Source of the DNA: Promethearchaeota archaeon
GTDB lineage: Archaea; Asgardarchaeota; Lokiarchaeia; Sigyniarchaeales; SOKP01
Assembly: GCA_019058365.1 (NCBI GenBank)
Contig: JAHPZE010000019.1
Coordinates: 1 to 64,000, forward strand
Reading direction: 5' to 3'
DNA: 64,000 nt
Below, piece after piece: positions 118-8,834 of the stretch. Both the position numbers and the translations under genes were made by a program. The stretch's first letter is position 1; the number at the start of each line of letters is the position of its first letter. The notes beneath the pieces are model-generated. The model was not told the origin of the DNA. It ran no database searches and worked only from the letters and a program-made list of their open reading frames with translations.

Positions 118-1923
118 TCATTCTTTACGCAATTCACGTCTCAAAATCTTGCCTACGATAGATTTTGGTAGCTCAGGGACAATCTCAATCATTCTAGGAT
201 ATTTATATGGACTTATATTATTTTGACACCACTCTAGAAGATCCTCTTTAGTAATTTTTCCTTTATATTCGGGTTTGAGTGAGATAAAAGCTTTAATTTC
301 TTGTCCTGTTTCTGGATCCGGTACTCCAATGACTCCTACTTCACTTACAGCTTCATGCATATAAATCAAATCCTCAACTTCTCTTGGAAAGACAGCATGA
401 CCTTTTCTTTTAATCATATCTCTTTTTCTATCTTTGATACGCAAATACCCATCCTTATCAACACATCCAATATCTGAAGTATAATACCATTCAACACCCT
501 CAGAGTCTTTTCGTAATGCATAATCAGTGTCTTTTTTCCTTCCTAAATATCCAATCATAACTTGTGGACCTGAAAAACATATTTCTCCTATATATTGCAG
601 TTGATTTTCACCACAATTTTCGCAACTTTCATTTGGACAATGAGGTAGTAATTTTATACCAGTCTCAGCGTCTACTATTTTGAGTAATGTATCAGAAATA
701 GGAAAACCAACAGTATTTATTTTTTGAAATTCTTTTTTAAATGGATTCAAAGAAACTACTGGAGAACATTCTGACATTCCATATCCTTCGACAATACTTA
801 CACCAGTGATATTTTCAAATTCATTTTTAACTTCCTTGGGTATTGCTGATGCAGCACTTATACATGCTATTAGAGTACCTAATTTACCTTTATATTTTCT
901 TGAAGTAGGATCTTCGTTTATTTTTATATAAAGTGTAGGGACTCCAGGCATATATGTAGCTTTTTCTTTCATCATTATTTTTAATATATCCGATATTTTT
1001 TCTGGAGGTCGTGGTAATAGGATCATTTTCCAACCTTCTAAAACTGAAACAGTCATACCTATATTGCCAAAAGAATGAGCAAGTGGTACTACTAGCATCA
1101 TTCCTCCTTTACCCTTTAACTCATTCATTTCTGGTAATTGTGTTGACGCCCAGATATCTGTTTGAAGTGCATTAACTACCATTGAATAGTGAGACGTCAT
1201 TACGCCCTTTGGAACTCCTGTAGTTCCGCCCGTATATATTAAAACAGATATATCTTCTTTAAGATTTATATCTACTTTTGGAACGTTTATTGGAAGTCCA
1301 TCTTTTAAAACTTCTTGAAATTTATGGAATGTGATATGTTCTATTTTTTCTGGCCATTCTTTCATCCTCGGAACTTTTCTAAGAGCAGTTCCCAGTTTTG
1401 CTTTTAAAGGAGGTAAATATTCTGCCAATCCTGTTAAGATGATATTTTTTAATGTTGACATTTTGCTTAATTCCTTACCAAGAAGGTATTCTTCATATAA
1501 ATAATCTAAGATTATGAGTGTGTTAGCTTTTGAGTCGTTTACTTGATGGACAATCTCAACAAATCGATTTACAGGAAGTATTGGATTTGAAGTTCCCCCA
1601 ATTCGAACGACTGCCCAATGAACAATAAGATATTGGGGAATATTTGGTAAATCAATACACACAACATCTCCTTTTTTTACACCTATTTTTGACAATGCGG
1701 TCGCAAATTGATCCACGAGAGTATCTAATTCTAGATATGTCATTCGGAAACCTTCAAAATATACTGCTTCAGAATCGGGGTATTTAAGAGCAGTCCTACT
1801 TAAAAGTTCTCCTAAAGGGATAGCATTATAATCAACATGTCTAGGTGTTTCCTTTGGCCATTTTTTATTTATTCCGTAAAATTTTATTAGATCCTTTTGA
1901 TTCATTTCGACATTCATTTTCAT
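118..1923 (-). CDS. fadD: Long-chain fatty-acid--CoA ligase (AMP-binding family)
   Basis: YTGGTTGVPKG P-loop, EGYGMSE motif, TSDIG..D.DGYLRIKDRKRD, and C-terminal LPKSIVGKILRRELR. Confidence 0.9.
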   Translation of the reverse strand: MKMNVEMNQKDLIKFYGINKKWPKETPRHVDYNAIPLGELLSRTALKYPDSEAVYFEGFRMTYLELDTLVDQFATALSKIGVKKGDVVCIDLPNIPQYLIVHWAVVRIGGTSNPILPVNRFVEIVHQVNDSKANTLIILDYLYEEYLLGKELSKMSTLKNIILTGLAEYLPPLKAKLGTALRKVPRMKEWPEKIEHITFHKFQEVLKDGLPINVPKVDINLKEDISVLIYTGGTTGVPKGVMTSHYSMVVNALQTDIWASTQLPEMNELKGKGGMMLVVPLAHSFGNIGMTVSVLEGWKMILLPRPPEKISDILKIMMKEKATYMPGVPTLYIKINEDPTSRKYKGKLGTLIACISAASAIPKEVKNEFENITGVSIVEGYGMSECSPVVSLNPFKKEFQKINTVGFPISDTLLKIVDAETGIKLLPHCPNESCENCGENQLQYIGEICFSGPQVMIGYLGRKKDTDYALRKDSEGVEWYYTSDIGCVDKDGYLRIKDRKRDMIKRKGHAVFPREVEDLIYMHEAVSEVGVIGVPDPETGQEIKAFISLKPEYKGKITKEDLLEWCQNNISPYKYPRMIEIVPELPKSIVGKILRRELRKE

Positions 1924-2037: not shown

Positions 2038-2475
2038 CTAAATTCGCATTTTGTATAAATTTTTATCTGGGATAAAACTCATCATAATTAAATCATCTCT
2101 TATTTCCCAACCTAAATTCCGATAAAATTCAACAACATCTTTATTATATTTTTCAATAAATAAATGTATCTTATGGACACCGATTTTACGAAATTTTTCT
2201 ATTAATTCATCCATTATCATTTTACCATATCCTTTCTTTTGATAATCTGGATCGATAGCAAGATGATGGACATAACCTCTTCTCCCATCAAACCCCCCAA
2301 TTACAACACCAATAATTCTATTATTAACTTTTCCAATTAAAAATAGATTTGGATTTCGTTGAAGCATTTTCTCAAGTTCATCTCTTGTATCCGTTGACCC
2401 AACATTGATTCCTGATCTCCTCCAGAGTTTAATAACGTTTTCATATGATTCCATAGTAAATTTTTCAATTTTCAT
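2038..2475 (-). CDS. GNAT N-acetyltransferase (YpeA-like)
   Basis: GFDGRRGYVHHLAIDPDYQKKGYG acetyl-CoA motif and N..VVEFYRNLGW. Confidence 0.88.
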   Translation of the reverse strand: MKIEKFTMESYENVIKLWRRSGINVGSTDTRDELEKMLQRNPNLFLIGKVNNRIIGVVIGGFDGRRGYVHHLAIDPDYQKKGYGKMIMDELIEKFRKIGVHKIHLFIEKYNKDVVEFYRNLGWEIRDDLIMMSFIPDKNLYKMRI

Positions 2476-2747
2476 GTGTTTTAAAATTATATGGTTAATT
2501 AACGTTATTATATCAAATTTATTGAATGATTTAAAACATTCTAATAATGGTTTTAAAAGTAATTTTGAGGAATTACCTAAAAAAAATAAAAATCAATAAT
2601 CACTAATTTTTTGAATATTCAAAGAATATACCAAATTTTAAAAAATTTGAATTAATTTGAGAAGTTAATAAGAATATATAATATGCACTACAAAGAAATA
2701 CAAAATAATTTTAAGATTTTAAGAATGTTGAAAAGTGTAAAACAGGA

Positions 2748-4352
2748 GTGATAAATAAAATGAGTAATGATAAGAATATAATTAAAGAATTAGTAAAAAT
2801 AACTGAAAAAGAATTTAATGTGAGAACTTATGCTGTAAAAAATGATTTTAATTTTTGTTATTATGTTGAAGATGATTCTGTAAAATATCTTGGTTTGGAT
2901 TTAGCAAAACTAAATCTAGACGCAAATAAATTAAAACTTGTGGAAGAATCTATTAGGAAACTACAAAATTTAAAAGGATTAAGTATAAGGTATCCTAAAA
3001 ATAATAATTTACCTGAATGGTTTAATGAATTTAACGATATGGAGAGTCTAAGCTTAGAAAATAATGATTTAGTAATAATACCCGAATGGATCAAAGAATT
3101 CAAGAAGTTAGCTTATTTAAACTTAGAATCCAATGATATTTCTATTTTACCCGAATGGTTAACTGCTTTAAATGAATTAAAAGAATTTTTAATAAGGAAT
3201 AATTTTAATCTTGAATGGAATGATAAGAATCTTAACATTCTAAAAAGTTTCTATAAAAAAAATTTAAAAATAAGCGCTCCAAGATTATTCGAATTTATGA
3301 TTCAACATGATCTTTCAAAAGATAAAACAGAAATAATTAAGGAACTCGAAAAAGAAAATTCGGAGAAAGAAAGACAACACCAATACGTTAATCCGATTAA
3401 TATGAAGATCGAGCATGGAAATGTTGTTGAATGGCGTATATCTCAATATAATATTAAATCTTTACCTGATAACTTCGGAGTATTCAAAAATATAAGATCC
3501 TTGACGATTATTAATACACCAATCGAATATTTACCCAATTCTTTTGGAGAGTTGACTAATCTTGAGTTTCTTGATTTATCTAATAATCGCCTTAAATCTC
3601 TACCAGACTCTTTTACCAATTTAACTATGATATCTAATTTAAATTTGAGCAATAATCAATTTACAGAGATTCCCACTGTTTTATGGGCTCTTAAAGAATT
3701 AACCGATTTGAATTTAAGCAATAATCCCTTAAACGACGAAGAAAAGAATATCATACAGAAAGTTCCTGATTTAATAAGAGATTACCTTAGAAAAAAAGCC
3801 ACTATAAGAATTTTTATCTCTCATGCAGTTATAGATTTTGAACCTTACCGAATAGGAGAACTTGTAAAATTTTTAGAAAACCAAAAAGAAATCTCGGAAG
3901 TTTATTTTTGTGAGGAAGATCTTGCCGGAAATATCGATGAGTGGATGCTAGAGACAGTACAAAAATGCCAATTATTACTATTTATTGCAACGAAAAAATC
4001 AGTATTTGCCTCAGTTGATTGTCAAAATGAATTACAACTTGCTAATAAGTTTTCAATACCAATTATTCCGATAAAGGGATATGATGTAGATTGGTCAGAT
4101 TTAGCAGAAAGAAATTTATCTCGTGAATTAGGACTGGAATTTGATAAAGATAACTTTGATGCATTTTGTGGAAATTTAAATGCTTATATTGAGAATTTCA
4201 AGCGTGAAATTGATTTAATGGGGAAAGAGGAACGGAGACAAGGCATTATAGATATCTATGAACGATTTCGACTTATGCTAGATGAAACCCTTAGTGATAT
4301 TAAAAGAAAAATAGACTCATTAGGGGATAGAATCACACAACTTGAAAAGTAA
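2748..4352 (+). CDS. Leucine-rich repeat protein with C-terminal TIR domain and terminal coiled coil
   Basis: Two blocks of LxxLxLxxNxLxxLP repeats; TIR box 1 IFISHA near nt 3810; S.DCQNELQLA helix with Glu at codon 4029-4031; heptad-like tail. GTG start follows AGGAG; ATG at 2760 is an alternative start. Confidence 0.88.
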   Translation: MINKMSNDKNIIKELVKITEKEFNVRTYAVKNDFNFCYYVEDDSVKYLGLDLAKLNLDANKLKLVEESIRKLQNLKGLSIRYPKNNNLPEWFNEFNDMESLSLENNDLVIIPEWIKEFKKLAYLNLESNDISILPEWLTALNELKEFLIRNNFNLEWNDKNLNILKSFYKKNLKISAPRLFEFMIQHDLSKDKTEIIKELEKENSEKERQHQYVNPINMKIEHGNVVEWRISQYNIKSLPDNFGVFKNIRSLTIINTPIEYLPNSFGELTNLEFLDLSNNRLKSLPDSFTNLTMISNLNLSNNQFTEIPTVLWALKELTDLNLSNNPLNDEEKNIIQKVPDLIRDYLRKKATIRIFISHAVIDFEPYRIGELVKFLENQKEISEVYFCEEDLAGNIDEWMLETVQKCQLLLFIATKKSVFASVDCQNELQLANKFSIPIIPIKGYDVDWSDLAERNLSRELGLEFDKDNFDAFCGNLNAYIENFKREIDLMGKEERRQGIIDIYERFRLMLDETLSDIKRKIDSLGDRITQLEK

Positions 4353-4475: not shown

Positions 4476-7007
4476 ATGACATTCCAGAAAACATTAAAAG
4501 ATGAAGATTCAAAACCAAATGAAGGATATCATAGAGATTATATAAGTGGAGTGCTTACTAAATCAACTCCTGAAGAGATTGAAGCAGTACAGCCATTTGG
4601 AAAAAAATTAGTTAAAGATCTTGGATATTTAAAAAAGCAAATTCAAACAAGACCACAATTTTATATAAAAAAGGGTTCTCAAAAAATTGGTCCTGTCGAT
4701 ATTGCAGTATTTGAGAATGAAAAAAAACATCCTGATGATCTATATATCATCGTAGAATGTAAATCAAGTTCTAAAGAAGAAGGAAAACAGCAACTTAAGT
4801 CATATATGAATCCTTCTACCGCGGTTTTAGGCGTGTGGTTTAATGGATTAGACCATTTATATATTCAAAAAGTCATAACGAAGGGAAATAAAATCACCTA
4901 TAAAGAAATCCCTAATATCCCTAGAAAAGGACAAAGAATTGAAGATATTGGAAAATATAAAAGAAATGATTTAATCATCCCAAATAATTTAACATTGTTA
5001 TTTAAAGAAATTCGTAATCATTTAGCGGGATCTTTAACTGGTGTTACTAGAGATGAGACAATTGCTCAACAAATAATAATATTACTTTTTTGTAAGATTT
5101 ATGATGAAATTGAAACCAAAACAGACGATCAAATTTTATTTAGAGTAGGAGTAGATGAACCAGCAAATTTAGTGAGAGATCGTATAGAAAAACTATTCCT
5201 AAAAGTAAAAACTATGTATCAGGAAATATTTACAAAAGAAGATCAAATAGAACTTGATGAAAAATCTTTAATATATATTATCGGTCAACTTCAGGATTAT
5301 TGTTTAACAGAAGCAGAAAGAGATGCTATAAGAAAAGCATTTGAAGTATTTATTGGCCCCGCTTTAAGAGGAAGTGAAGGACAGTTTTTTACTCCTAGAA
5401 ATGTTATTAAGATGTGCTTTGATATTATTGATCCGAATATTGGAGATGTTATTATTGATCCTGCTTGTGGTTCTGGAGGTTTTTTAGTTATTGCTTTAAC
5501 TGAAGTTTTAAAAAAATTGGAGAAAGAGCGAGATAATAGAAAATGGAATGATTTAATATTTTATCAAGAAAGAAATAAAATTCTTCATAAATGCTTTAAA
5601 GGAATTGATAAGGATAAATTTCTAACAAAAGTCACAAAAGCTTATATGGCAATTATAGGTAATGGTAAAGAAAATATCTTTTGTGAAAATTCATTGGAAC
5701 TTCCAGAAAATTGGAAAACAAAAACCCAAATGAATATAAATTTTAATAATTTTGATGTATTACTTACTAATCCTCCATTTGGATCTAAAATAAAGATTAA
5801 AGGTGATCGGATACTATCTCAATATCATCTAGGATATAAATGGGCTGCTAAAGAAGGAATTATTTCAAAAACCAATAGTCTTAGAAATAGCCAAGCACCC
5901 CAAATCTTGTTCATCGAAAGATGCCTACAACTTTTACGAGAAAATGGAAAAATGGCAATTGTTTTACCTGAAGGACTTCTGGGTAATCCTACTCAAGAAT
6001 ATATTAGAAAATTTATTTTTGAAAATTCCAAAGTATTAGCAGTTATCGATGCTCCTGTAGAAACTTTTCTACCAAATACTAGTACAAAGACCTGCATCTT
6101 ATTCCTTCAGAAATGCGTTGTAAAGAATGAGAATTATAAAATATTTATGGCAATCGCAAAGAAATGTGGTCATGATTCAAGAGATAATATTATCTATAAA
6201 ATAAAAAAAGATGGTGAATATATTTATAATGAAGAAGGTAAGAAAATAATAGATGATGATTTTTTATTAATAAGTAAACAACATCAGCTAATTAATTACA
6301 AAAAAACAGCAAAGTTTGATAGAAAGGGTTTCTTAGTTTCACTTTCAGAGTTAAGATCTTATAGCATCATCCCAAGATTCTATAATCCAACTATAAAGGA
6401 AGATTTAGACAAACTTCATGATAAATATGATTTGATAACCATTGGCGATTTAATAAACATGAAAATTTTATCATTTCATAATGGTAAAGGAGTTGAGAAA
6501 AAATATTATGGAACTGGAGATATTCCTTATATCAGAACATCTGATATTACTAATTGGGAATTAAAAGTTGATCCTACTTACGGTATATCTGAAGAGATAT
6601 ATGAAAAGTATAAACAAGATCTAAAAATATATGACATTCTTTTTGTTATGGATGGAGGACGTTTAATAGGTAACAATTGTATATTATTCGAAGAAAGAGA
6701 TACTAAGTGTTTGATACAAACTCATTTTCAGATTTTGCGTTGTGAAAAGTGGGATATTTTAAATCCTTTTTTACTTCTATATCTTTTAAATACACCAATT
6801 ATGAAGAAACAAGTGAAAGCAAATATTGTTATTCAATCTACTCTTGCAACTATTGGGGAAAGAACAAAAGACTTATATTTGCCTATTCCTAAAGACCCTA
6901 AAATTAGAGAGAAATTAGCCAAAAAAACAAGATTAATAATTGAAGAGAGAGCAAGATTCCGAAGAGAAATTGAAGAAATATCAAAGATTTCCTTAGAAGA
7001 TAATTAA
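4476..7007 (+). CDS. Fused restriction-modification enzyme (type IIG-like): endonuclease + N6-adenine MTase + target recognition domain
   Basis: N-terminal HsdR_N-like PEE...VDIAVF...IVECK nuclease motif; GQFFTPR, DPACGSGGF (motif I) and NPPF (motif IV); C-terminal HsdS-like GDIPYIRTSDI domain. Confidence 0.88.
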   Translation: MTFQKTLKDEDSKPNEGYHRDYISGVLTKSTPEEIEAVQPFGKKLVKDLGYLKKQIQTRPQFYIKKGSQKIGPVDIAVFENEKKHPDDLYIIVECKSSSKEEGKQQLKSYMNPSTAVLGVWFNGLDHLYIQKVITKGNKITYKEIPNIPRKGQRIEDIGKYKRNDLIIPNNLTLLFKEIRNHLAGSLTGVTRDETIAQQIIILLFCKIYDEIETKTDDQILFRVGVDEPANLVRDRIEKLFLKVKTMYQEIFTKEDQIELDEKSLIYIIGQLQDYCLTEAERDAIRKAFEVFIGPALRGSEGQFFTPRNVIKMCFDIIDPNIGDVIIDPACGSGGFLVIALTEVLKKLEKERDNRKWNDLIFYQERNKILHKCFKGIDKDKFLTKVTKAYMAIIGNGKENIFCENSLELPENWKTKTQMNINFNNFDVLLTNPPFGSKIKIKGDRILSQYHLGYKWAAKEGIISKTNSLRNSQAPQILFIERCLQLLRENGKMAIVLPEGLLGNPTQEYIRKFIFENSKVLAVIDAPVETFLPNTSTKTCILFLQKCVVKNENYKIFMAIAKKCGHDSRDNIIYKIKKDGEYIYNEEGKKIIDDDFLLISKQHQLINYKKTAKFDRKGFLVSLSELRSYSIIPRFYNPTIKEDLDKLHDKYDLITIGDLINMKILSFHNGKGVEKKYYGTGDIPYIRTSDITNWELKVDPTYGISEEIYEKYKQDLKIYDILFVMDGGRLIGNNCILFEERDTKCLIQTHFQILRCEKWDILNPFLLLYLLNTPIMKKQVKANIVIQSTLATIGERTKDLYLPIPKDPKIREKLAKKTRLIIEERARFRREIEEISKISLEDN

Positions 7008-7112: not shown

Positions 7113-8834
7113 TTATATATTATATTTACTTAACTCAAGTAAAGCTTCGTCTGATTTACGTTCTAATTCTTTTAATGCATCTTCATTCTCATCATCTAAA
7201 GCTCTTTTAATAATTGTGTTGATTTCAACTAATTCTCTTATACTTTCTGCATTATTAGTAAATAATTGAATAAATTTAGTTATCTCCATAAAACGAACAT
7301 TTCTTTTATATTTTAATTTAAGAGAATTTAGTTTCATTTTAAGTGTTTCGAATATTTTTTCGCTGTATATACCATAAAAGACAAGAATTACACTTCGATT
7401 TTTAACTAAATATTTCTTTTCTGGATTTATTTTATCAAGAACACATACATTAAATCTCACTAAATTTGGAATGGTATAGTCAATAAATAAAGCTTTAAAT
7501 TTGCTTAATGAACTATCTGAAGAGGATTTTAATATATCAATTAATTTTTGTTGTGTACTTACTTCTAGTGCACTATCAATTCTATGAAGACTTTTAGGGT
7601 AATTGAACTGATATTCATGCTTGGAAATAACTCCTAATTTAAGCCATAATTTTCTAAAAAAGTTTTCTAGTATGGGGTGTGATTGACGACCTATATAAGA
7701 TGCTCTCTCTCCTAATCTAATTCTAGGAATTTCATTTAGTAAATTTATGGCACATTCACACTCATTTGGAGTGTAGGCTTTATTTTTGTTCAAAATATTT
7801 TTAATTTCAACAATTGTTTCTCGAGAAATAAATGTCTCATATAATAAATAATCCGCAAGTAATTTTCTCCCACCAATTTCTCTACTAAGTTGTGTTAGAG
7901 TAAATAATCCTTTATTATCCCTTCCTTTATTAAATTTTCTTAATTCTGCTTGAGATTTTCTTTTAAACCTAGCTTTAGTTAAAGCATAGAGGGTAAATAT
8001 TAATCCATCGTATTGTTGTCTCATTATTTCTGCATTTTCACTACTAAAAATACCTTGTTGAACCATTTCCTGATATATAATATCAATCGCTCCTGTTTTA
8101 AACCATTCAAAAGTCTTTCTATTCTTAAATTTAAAACTTTTATAATCTAGCAATAAAATATTTGTAGTTAATGTAAAATATTTTGAATACTGTTCAGATT
8201 TTGAATTTTTGATTCTTTTCTTTATGTCACTTAGATAATTTGGATTCATACCCAAACTCTTAGATATTGATAATAGGGAATGAGGATCTCTTTTAGATTG
8301 TCCCATTTTTTCCCAAATCGTACAGTCATCTAAAAGAAAAGCAAGTTTTATGATAAAATCCATCTTTGGGTAATTTTTATTGATATAGGCATCCATAGCT
8401 AATTTAATTATTTTTTGACTTTTTAAAATTCTATCTTCATATTCCTGAAAGAATCTCATTATATTAGCTCGTATCTTTCTGAATTCAAGATCAGATAATA
8501 TAATGAGTCTATTATAATCTAAAACTATTAACCAGCTCCTTGCTTTTGATCGAGATACTCCTAAAAATTTACCTATATTATAATGTGAGATTGAGTTAGG
8601 AACTTGCTGCTGAGGATGAAAAATGTTTTTTCCTTGTATGAACGTAAATTCGTTTTGCTCTTTATGTTTAAAGTGATATTGCTCTAATACCCTTTTATTT
8701 TTATATATTTGATTTAAAATGATTTTAATTAATCTCGTAGCACTATTATCTTTTCTATTGAAGGAAAATCGTGAAGTTTCTGAATCATCGATTTTCTTTA
8801 TCAAGCCACCAAATTTCTTATATATCTCTGCCAT
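7113..8834 (-). CDS. Hypothetical basic protein, possible HTH + PD-(D/E)xK-like nuclease
   Basis: 573-aa Lys-rich ORF; HTH-like segments (SISKSLGMNPNYLS, LTQLSREIG); C-terminal HE...RID...IDYT pattern resembling restriction-endonuclease folds. Function is inferred. Confidence 0.45.
   Translation of the reverse strand: MAEIYKKFGGLIKKIDDSETSRFSFNRKDNSATRLIKIILNQIYKNKRVLEQYHFKHKEQNEFTFIQGKNIFHPQQQVPNSISHYNIGKFLGVSRSKARSWLIVLDYNRLIILSDLEFRKIRANIMRFFQEYEDRILKSQKIIKLAMDAYINKNYPKMDFIIKLAFLLDDCTIWEKMGQSKRDPHSLLSISKSLGMNPNYLSDIKKRIKNSKSEQYSKYFTLTTNILLLDYKSFKFKNRKTFEWFKTGAIDIIYQEMVQQGIFSSENAEIMRQQYDGLIFTLYALTKARFKRKSQAELRKFNKGRDNKGLFTLTQLSREIGGRKLLADYLLYETFISRETIVEIKNILNKNKAYTPNECECAINLLNEIPRIRLGERASYIGRQSHPILENFFRKLWLKLGVISKHEYQFNYPKSLHRIDSALEVSTQQKLIDILKSSSDSSLSKFKALFIDYTIPNLVRFNVCVLDKINPEKKYLVKNRSVILVFYGIYSEKIFETLKMKLNSLKLKYKRNVRFMEITKFIQLFTNNAESIRELVEINTIIKRALDDENEDALKELERKSDEALLELSKYNI

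Follow-up and report, generated by a model that had tools for sequence, protein, structure and literature searches.

A divergent TIR domain joined to two leucine-rich repeat blocks in a Lokiarchaeial protein: a candidate NTPase-less receptor-type enzyme

TIR domains are an immune currency common to bacteria, plants, and animals, and their use in archaea related to the eukaryotes has scarcely been explored. The question of whether such a domain is coupled to a repeat sensor in these organisms, and to what end, is raised by a gene located at 2748..4352 on the plus strand of a 64,000-nt stretch (hereafter the window) of contig JAHPZE010000019.1, from a member of the Promethearchaeota, which are placed in the kingdom Promethearchaeati. 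The original prediction, made from the letters alone, described its product as a leucine-rich repeat (LRR)-LRR-TIR-coiled-coil protein with a soluble Toll-like-receptor (TLR) architecture. The predicted structure and profile comparisons reported here identify the C-terminal domain as a genuine TIR, belonging to a family in which a repeat sensor is wired straight to the TIR without the nucleoside triphosphatase (NTPase) switch of NLR type; the function tentatively favoured is that of a TIR enzyme that works without an NTPase, is switched on by a ligand of its diversifying LRR sensor, and most likely serves defence by consuming NAD+.

The gene consists of a single open frame (stop included) of 534 aa when counted from the GTG at 2748, and this numbering is used throughout. 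The homologue alignment and its consensus begin at the nearly invariant methionine that corresponds to residue 5, and a GGAG motif resembling a Shine-Dalgarno sequence (2745-2748; 2745..2762 together with the start) lies 11 nt upstream of the ATG at 2760-2762; because of these two features the true product is probably of about 530 aa from ATG 2760, which is the length of many homologues, with GTG 2748 merely the first possible start of the frame. The IFISHA motif at residue 355, the DCQNELQLA motif at residue 424, and the Glu428 codon at 4029-4031 were all found where they had been read. Since 908 homologous proteins were retrieved, many of them full-length at 45-95% identity, the frame is, to judge from its relatives, a real conserved gene far beyond chance; the labels of these relatives (Promethearchaeota, Lokiarchaeia, Hermodarchaeota, and Odinarchaeota) bear out the Asgard origin that had been proposed, and some of the NCBI records are already named 'TIR domain-containing protein'.

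The identification of the C-terminal domain (3801..4208, aa 352-487) as a TIR is thin on sequence evidence by itself and is settled by structure and profile comparison. The Pfam TIR_2 model (PF13676) is borderline on this protein, with 26.8-28.1 bits against a cut-off of 28, and a six-frame TIR_2 hidden Markov model (HMM) scan of the source genome at E <= 0.001 did not pick up the gene, which marks its TIR, at the level of sequence, as highly divergent from that model; six canonical TIR_2 matches above the cut-off were found in the same genome (52-64 bits in the genome scan; 51-59 bits for the five of them scored as proteins). When the TIR-helix alignment was used as a profile against PDB sequences, no solved TIR was retrieved, a match to Tam41 (E 0.017) being rejected as chance, and nothing usable came from a phmmer search of a canonical TIR_2 domain of the same genome against PDB; as the sequence bridge to a solved active site failed, the assignment relies on fold matches and on hhalign.

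When the TIR-helix module was folded separately for structure searches (predicted local distance difference test, pLDDT, 76.6), TIRs ranked first in Foldseek (Roq1, SARM1, TIR-1, RPS4, and SPARTA; E values between 6e-5 and 1e-3). In VIA-align all of the top 50 entries were TIRs, the module superposing on RPV1/RUN1 (5ku7) with Z 15.0 and a root-mean-square deviation (rmsd) of 2.4 Å over 132 residues, on the SPARTA TIR-APAZ with Z 15.0, on SARM1 with Z 13.6, and on AbTir with Z 13.1; the five-stranded parallel beta sheet has the flavodoxin-like TIR topology and is superposable on solved TIRs. Each listed row of an ESM-Atlas shape search was a TIR_2 cluster. In addition, hhalign joined the family alignment to the five canonical TIR_2 domains of the same genome with a probability of 98.9% (E 2.8e-17, 128 columns), and TIR_2 was matched at E < 0.01 by 38 of 49 homologues (best E 8e-9). 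The HMM search and structure prediction that had been suggested as a check thus give a Pfam score at the threshold and a fold that matches solved TIRs, and the domain is, on the modelled fold and these profiles, a genuine TIR homologous to the canonical TIR_2 domains of its own genome.

That the domain is not a TIR and belongs to the related NIR (DUF4062) NADase family is scarcely conceivable. DUF4062 (PF13271) gives weak matches on the protein (13-16 bits, E 0.016-0.11) and is matched at E < 0.01 by seven of the 49 homologues, and NIR domains are structurally close to TIRs according to the literature; however, the scores (13.1-15.8 bits) are far below the cut-off of 24.7, while the number of TIR_2-matching members, the hhalign alignment with bona fide TIR_2 domains, and the solved entries heading the structural list all point to a TIR. 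The predicted activity is identical either way.

The residues of the presumed active site outline a pocket that appears TIR-like but not classical. In the 49 full-length homologues S358, H359, C388, E389, G394, W399, S422, D424, C425, N427, E428, and L429 are invariant, and among 147 representatives of the wider subfamily (clusters at 50% identity) Glu428 is kept in 142, C425 in 143, S422 in 141, D424 and G394 in 111 each, and S358 and H359 in most. Of these residues C388, E389, G394, and W399 lie in the BB-loop region (3909..3944, aa 388-399), in which the low pLDDT at 390-393 is as expected of a mobile loop. Glu428 (codon 4029..4031), the putative catalytic glutamate, belongs to the signature S422-x-D424-C425-x-N427-E428-L429, corresponds to residue 91 of the model, and is the sole Glu in its helix. 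In accordance with the proposal of a glutamate at the catalytic position, it falls in hhalign on the conserved Glu of the canonical TIR_2 domains; by VIA alignment ranges, which are not a residue-level superposition, RUN1 E100 (7s2z, 'E100A') lies within 2 and SARM1 E642 (7cm7, 'E642A') within 5 residues of it.

In SARM1, AbTir, and plant TIRs a Trp precedes the Glu by four residues (the W-x-x-x-E motif), and the helix motif of plant TIRs is S-x-W-C-x-x-E-L. The pattern of the present family, S-x-x-C-x-x-E-L, matches the plant motif except at the Trp position, which is occupied by the invariant Asp424; as the canonical TIR_2 domains of the same genome also have no Trp there, W-x-x-x-E is not defining for all TIR_2 domains. 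The TIR and the C-terminal helix might form a catalytically silent scaffold for protein-protein assembly, the role long ascribed to the TIRs of TLRs and MyD88; in favour of this, a substitution of W by D at this position could disable nicotinamide stacking, and some Glu-bearing TIRs are reported to show no NADase activity in vitro. This is very improbable, given that Glu428, C425, and S422 are kept near-universally in the 147 representatives and that degenerate paired TIRs of relatives, devoid of both Glu and BB loop, show what relaxed catalytic constraint looks like. In published work the NADase activity and the defence function of TIR and NIR domains require this glutamate, as does the production of cyclic ADP-ribose (cADPR) by animal TIRs.

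These degenerate domains occur in tandem LRR-TIR pairs such as L035:6700-9006(-) with L035:4221-6725(-), and also in L036, L038, and L039 (genomes G168, G219, G189, and G282). One member carries the degenerate TIR, in which 'CIAVIRNA' replaces 'DCxNELxLA', and the combination of an active and a dead copy recalls the RRS1/RPS4 pairs of plants.

The remainder of the protein was described from a full-length AlphaFold model built on the 49 homologues (pLDDT 85.9; predicted template modelling score, pTM, 0.73). Pfam recognises strong LRR_8/LRR_14 matches in two blocks of five and four repeats, each of 23 residues, while NCBIfam echoes LRR effectors only; one block is a duplicate of the other within the protein (32% identity over 94 aa, E 1e-8), and each is preceded in the model by its own cap made of a helix and a beta hairpin (residues 7-51 and 191-232), so the two separately capped blocks of the original prediction are recovered. 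From the N-terminus, all on the plus strand, cap 1 (2748..2900, aa 1-51) is followed by LRR block 1 (2901..3281, aa 52-178), by a helical linker with cap 2 (3282..3449, aa 179-234; helix 179-209 and strands 218-232), and by LRR block 2 with its C-terminal cap or linker helix (3450..3800; repeats at aa 235-337, helix at aa 338-351), this helix being conserved, with P340, I343, and L347 invariant. In the TIR that comes next, the modelled elements are betaA (353-358), betaB (382-387), betaC (409-414), alphaC (423-434), betaD (439-443), and alphaE (470-487).

The protein ends in a conserved helix (4209..4349, aa 488-534), seen in the alignment and in the model, where the predicted heptad tail takes the form of a single long helix at 493-533 (41 residues); on reading the sequence, the a/d pattern is regular over its last 22 residues, from L511 to L532, and Y504, E505, F507, R508, and L509 are invariant. 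The prediction of a complex of two TIR-helix copies gave a score of 0.02, which bears neither way on self-association. A Kyte-Doolittle scan of the whole protein detected neither a transmembrane (TM) helix nor a signal peptide, and since the 19-residue mean never rises above 1.13 and the N-terminus is hydrophilic, the protein is soluble and cytoplasmic. Neither a P-loop NTPase (NB-ARC, NACHT, or STAND) nor a Roc or COR domain was matched by Pfam or NCBIfam, and no such NTPase domain is present in the AlphaFold model; the four absences noted originally therefore stand.

Along this architecture conservation climbs from sensor to effector, and variability peaks on the concave LRR faces. Mean identity to the window's protein is 29% in cap 1 (the least conserved part), 43% in the fast-evolving LRR block 1, 31% in the linker with cap 2, 62% in LRR block 2, 79% in the TIR, and 64% in the C-terminal helix. 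LRR block 1 is 34-44% identical in several syntenic orthologues; at several loci where the flanking genes share about 80% identity it is 36-44% and the TIR 75-85% identical, and in two syntenic ones (L052 and L059, flanks about 80% identical) the values are 36-40% and 78%. Within the repeats, the mean entropy reaches 2.45 bits at the five solvent-exposed concave positions, against 1.50 at convex positions (Mann-Whitney p 1e-8), and is 1.01 at scaffold positions. This asymmetry between sensor and effector fits an immune-type sensor.

On the reading tentatively favoured, the product would be a cytoplasmic enzyme of receptor type that has no NTPase, and its two LRR blocks would form a variable protein-binding surface whose ligand is either foreign, and then most likely viral, or linked to stress. 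Binding would relieve autoinhibition and/or cluster the conserved C-terminal TIR-helix modules, adjacent TIRs would build composite active sites, and Glu428 would cleave NAD+. In TIR enzymology activation by oligomerisation is established and is hence expected here. The output may be self-contained, with growth halted as NAD+ runs out (abortive infection), and this form is favoured because the gene is accompanied by no effector gene. In this scheme the cleavage of NAD+ and the defence role are inferred, as are the kind of ligand bound and the activation of the enzyme through oligomerisation.

Among ten other proteins with the same TIR type, nine either lack a recognisable N-terminal family or carry LRR arrays that differ widely in length (449-1332 aa), and the tenth, L027:4779-7982(+) from the relative G234, consists of a signal or TM segment, LVIVD repeats, a TSP3 repeat, a TM helix (889-907), and then the TIR. 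As this protein joins the same TIR subtype to an LVIVD-TM receptor, one TIR subfamily serves soluble LRR and membrane receptor architectures alike.

Receptor-like proteins are also encoded by the canonical TIR_2 loci of the source genome, L042-L046 (C7:139840-143649(+), C33:54937-61557(+), C54:45694-50241(-), C53:28578-31079(+), and C16:40230-40976(-)), in which the TIR_2 domains (51-59 bits) form C-terminal cytoplasmic tails and all keep the Glu aligned to E428. One, of 1269 aa, is composed of a signal or TM segment, a periplasmic-binding/ANF-receptor domain, fn3, a beta-helix, a TM helix, and the TIR; another, of 2206 aa, has thirteen NosD beta-helix units, a TM helix, and the TIR; a third, of 1515 aa, has thirteen LVIVD repeats, PKD, a TM helix, and the TIR; the remaining two are multi-TM proteins with a TIR. 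These proteins share the ectodomain-TM-TIR topology of TLRs, but their ectodomains are not made of LRRs.

The conservation of the effector can be understood in another way. In a signal-generating TIR of Thoeris or plant type, NAD+ would be converted to a nucleotide second messenger (a cADPR isomer or an ADP-ribose conjugate) that is read by an effector encoded elsewhere in the genome; this is possible, though unlikely. Conservation of the whole TIR surface would fit a product matched to a conserved receptor, the non-classical S-x-D-C-x-x-E-L pocket may yield a different product, and the same TIR output stands behind many LRR and membrane receptors, as for a common signalling currency. Moreover, animal and plant TIRs with this Glu are reported to produce cADPR-type signals, and a study of the Asgard virome described Tad2-like and NAD-reconstitution anti-defence genes with no cognate Thoeris system in the hosts; if the product were a signal, these orphan counter-defence genes of Asgard viruses and genomes could be explained. 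On the other hand, in the nine contexts with called genes (the window and eight related loci) neither a ThsA-like protein (SIR2/SLOG or Macro-TM) nor any other effector adjoins the gene and no conserved partner gene was seen, and Thoeris, that is ThsB with ThsA, was recognised neither by PADLOC nor by the ThsB_TIR Pfam model. A ThsA-like partner was sought through SIR2_2 domains, three of which score above the cut-off in the source genome (C21:94877-95257(-), C34:315790-316170(-), and C29:30966-31355(+)); the candidates were rejected as partners, being three large open reading frames (ORFs) of 790-954 aa, unlinked and with nothing tying them to the LRR-TIR gene, and could be NAD-linked defence proteins in their own right.

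The distribution of the gene bears on whether its role is one of defence at all. A motif scan of one genome per species yielded 38 loci, all in metagenome-assembled genomes labelled as Asgard or 'uncultured archaeon' bar one; the exception, contig L074 (DATKTW010000024.1), is labelled Candidatus Nanopelagicaceae bacterium, carries a full-length copy of 61% identity, and is probably a mis-binned Asgard contig. A profile search gave 655 representative clusters at E <= 1e-3, of which 119 at E <= 1e-30, with the module nearly always C-terminal in proteins of 200-1500 aa. Among 301 genomes surveyed in the phylum, the module occurs in 32 of the 68 from the window's family and in three of the seven of a sister family, and was found in none of the 28 other families sampled; in the window's genus six of 21 genomes have it, most of those without it being 92-99% complete. 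The source genome holds one copy of this type, while relatives contain up to seven module matches. The LRR-TIR gene is thus accessory and patchy.

A non-immune role, in which the LRRs would bind an endogenous partner (such as a small GTPase, or a protein of the cytoskeleton or of membrane remodelling) and the TIR would serve as a general regulatory output of Lokiarchaeia, like a receiver or an enzymatic switch, is doubtful. It agrees with neighbourhoods that are mostly housekeeping: the eight related contexts comprise three of methyltransferase type, four housekeeping ones, and one beside a HEPN/nucleotidyltransferase pair. In two of the four housekeeping loci an Arf/Ras/Roc-like small GTPase gene (L085:6226-6681(-) and L087:6228-6755(-)) is divergent from the LRR-TIR gene and is followed by a 187-aa ORF; the LRRs are structurally nearest to those of Roco and SHOC2, which bind partners of GTPase pathways, and the combination of this neighbour with LRRs of Roco-like fold suggests a possible connection to GTPase signalling. 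The TIR_2 tails placed behind ectodomain-TM receptors, which resemble environmental sensors, agree with such a role as well. In contrast, the gene is missing from 15 of the 21 genomes of the genus in spite of their completeness, and a fast-evolving ligand-binding face, together with strongly varying copy and repeat numbers, would be unusual for a housekeeping regulator. Both the signal-generating and the non-immune explanation are serious because of the housekeeping contexts, the extreme conservation of the TIR, and the TIR tails on ectodomain-TM receptors.

Several observations weigh against a ligand-gated, NAD+-consuming defence enzyme. PADLOC has no model that matches the LRR-TIR protein, most contexts are not defence islands, and the methyltransferase found beside some copies is a conserved syntenic gene that stays at the locus also where the LRR-TIR gene is absent, so that the association of the two is weak. 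The TIR module, with its mean identity of 79%, is unusually conserved for a defence effector, and the occurrence of the same TIR type as the cytoplasmic tail of membrane receptors that have large ectodomains speaks for general signalling and not for intracellular virus sensing. Finally, Asp424 stands where classical NADase TIRs have Trp, owing to which the substrate or the product may differ, and the placement of Glu428 relative to RUN1 and SARM1 is at the level of alignment ranges.

A broader and improbable extension joins these observations into a Lokiarchaeial, NTPase-independent TIR receptor network, in which one TIR or TIR-helix output would be mounted on interchangeable sensors and a nucleotide signal would reach a common, still hypothetical effector. 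The sensors of this equally conjectural network would include soluble LRR arrays such as the one encoded by the present gene, the active/dead LRR-TIR pairs, and the ectodomain-TM receptors. If true, the receptor logic of TIR immunity in eukaryotes would have a counterpart in prokaryotes, which might even be its forerunner. The family itself offers a compact, soluble, and well-conserved model, with about 900 natural sensor variants on one effector, for the path from ligand to TIR activation.

The comparison with known systems delimits what is shared. The enzymatic TIRs (RUN1/RPV1/RPS4, SARM1/TIR-1, SPARTA, AbTir, and ThsB-type) have the same fold (Z 13-15, rmsd 2.4-3.0 Å, 120-134 residues) and, like the family, a betaA strand with F-I-S-[HY], a BB-loop Gly, and an S-x-x-C-x-x-E-L helix with Glu at the catalytic position; unlike them, the family has a TIR followed by the conserved 41-residue helix and is devoid of ARM/SAM, NB-ARC, APAZ/Argonaute, and a ThsA partner. 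With animal TLRs the only shared trait is the domain order, LRR N-terminal to TIR: the family has no signal peptide, ectodomain, or TM helix, its LRRs are short 23-residue repeats in two blocks, resembling those of Roco, SHOC2, and Leptospira proteins, and no TLR is found among the top 50 whole-protein Foldseek matches, which are Roco, Leptospira LRR proteins, SHOC2, LRRK2, internalins, and LRRC8, the best being 6hlu (Chlorobium tepidum Roco, E 4.6e-13). Of the soluble Toll-like architecture initially put forward, solubility and the order of LRR and TIR are retained and the further likeness is not; this order alone is not to be read as ancestry. According to a recent preprint, some TLR TIRs that keep the glutamate are catalytically active.

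The Roco proteins (Chlorobium tepidum Roco and LRRK2, with LRR-Roc-COR order) are similar in having an LRR block followed by an alpha/beta domain, but in the family Roc and COR are missing, the TIR takes the place of Roc, and the likeness is confined to the LRR part. Plant TIR-NLRs and bacterial STAND-TIR proteins (Avs-type) likewise join a repeat sensor to a TIR effector, the sensor being variable and the effector conserved, and occur as multiple paralogues; in contrast to them, the family has no NB-ARC, NACHT, or STAND NTPase and runs in the opposite order, from an N-terminal sensor to a C-terminal TIR.

Nor is the architecture as exceptional as the original prediction suggested. It does define an Asgard family, but in an ESM-Atlas feature search LRR+TIR_2 clusters were common in Bacteroidota, Bacillota, and Chloroflexota (feature scores 0.90-0.93), in the form of likewise soluble proteins of 300-550 aa. 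The Asgard family differs from these in its own TIR subtype, its double LRR block, and its C-terminal helix; the lineages are different, and a homology wider than the shared domains is conjectural. A survey of E. coli TIR systems states that TLR-like LRR and TM features seem absent from the bacterial TIR systems studied, two surveys of Asgard defence leave LRR-TIR proteins unmentioned, and literature searches found no description of, or experimental work on, Asgard or prokaryotic LRR-TIR proteins.

As regards the surroundings of the gene, the order in the window is acyl-CoA synthetase (minus), GNAT acetyltransferase (2038..2475, minus; identified by Pfam and synteny), LRR-TIR (plus), a type IIG-like restriction-modification (R-M) gene of 843 aa (4476..7007, plus; HSDR_N_2, N6_Mtase, and Eco57I-like by Pfam and PADLOC), a 573-aa ORF (7113..8834, minus) with no Pfam or PADLOC match and hence no assigned family, and two enoyl-CoA hydratases (plus). 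The GNAT gene is a conserved flank and not part of the system. In four genomes of the same genus that have no LRR-TIR gene, GNAT, a different Eco57I-like methyltransferase (minus), and the enoyl-CoA hydratase occupy an interval of 2.77 kb, against 7.2 kb in the window, which gives a clean presence/absence of the LRR-TIR gene at this locus. Among the 38 species-level loci, the gene lies beside this Eco57I-like methyltransferase, on either side, in 14 and elsewhere in 24.

The 843-aa R-M protein is only 35-40% identical to the methyltransferase that occupies its place in relatives. The closest relative, L047 (95% identical; 95-97% for the LRR-TIR gene and its flanks), keeps the Eco57I-like methyltransferase (about 690 aa, minus strand), and for this reason the R-M gene and the 573-aa ORF of the window look like a recent swap of an R-M cassette; GC content in the 2.4-9 kb region is slightly lower (0.25-0.29) than in the flanks (0.31-0.34). 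A three-gene system made of LRR-TIR, type IIG R-M, and the 573-aa ORF was also considered and rejected: the ORF has no tblastn match in the 38 related LRR-TIR loci, the methyltransferase is of that low identity, and its counterpart in relatives occurs at the locus without any LRR-TIR gene. The LRR-TIR gene is a stand-alone gene, sometimes located in a variable R-M spot, and not a component of a fixed multi-gene system.

A minor observation concerns the acyl-CoA synthetase at the edge of the window (118-1923), whose frame is open. Its orthologues in three genomes of the same genus (G195:C24:67911-69704, G049:C74:2101-3900, and G171:C7:65701-67479) have one in-frame TGA each, which could be due to a selenocysteine/cysteine pair or to a recurrent assembly feature.

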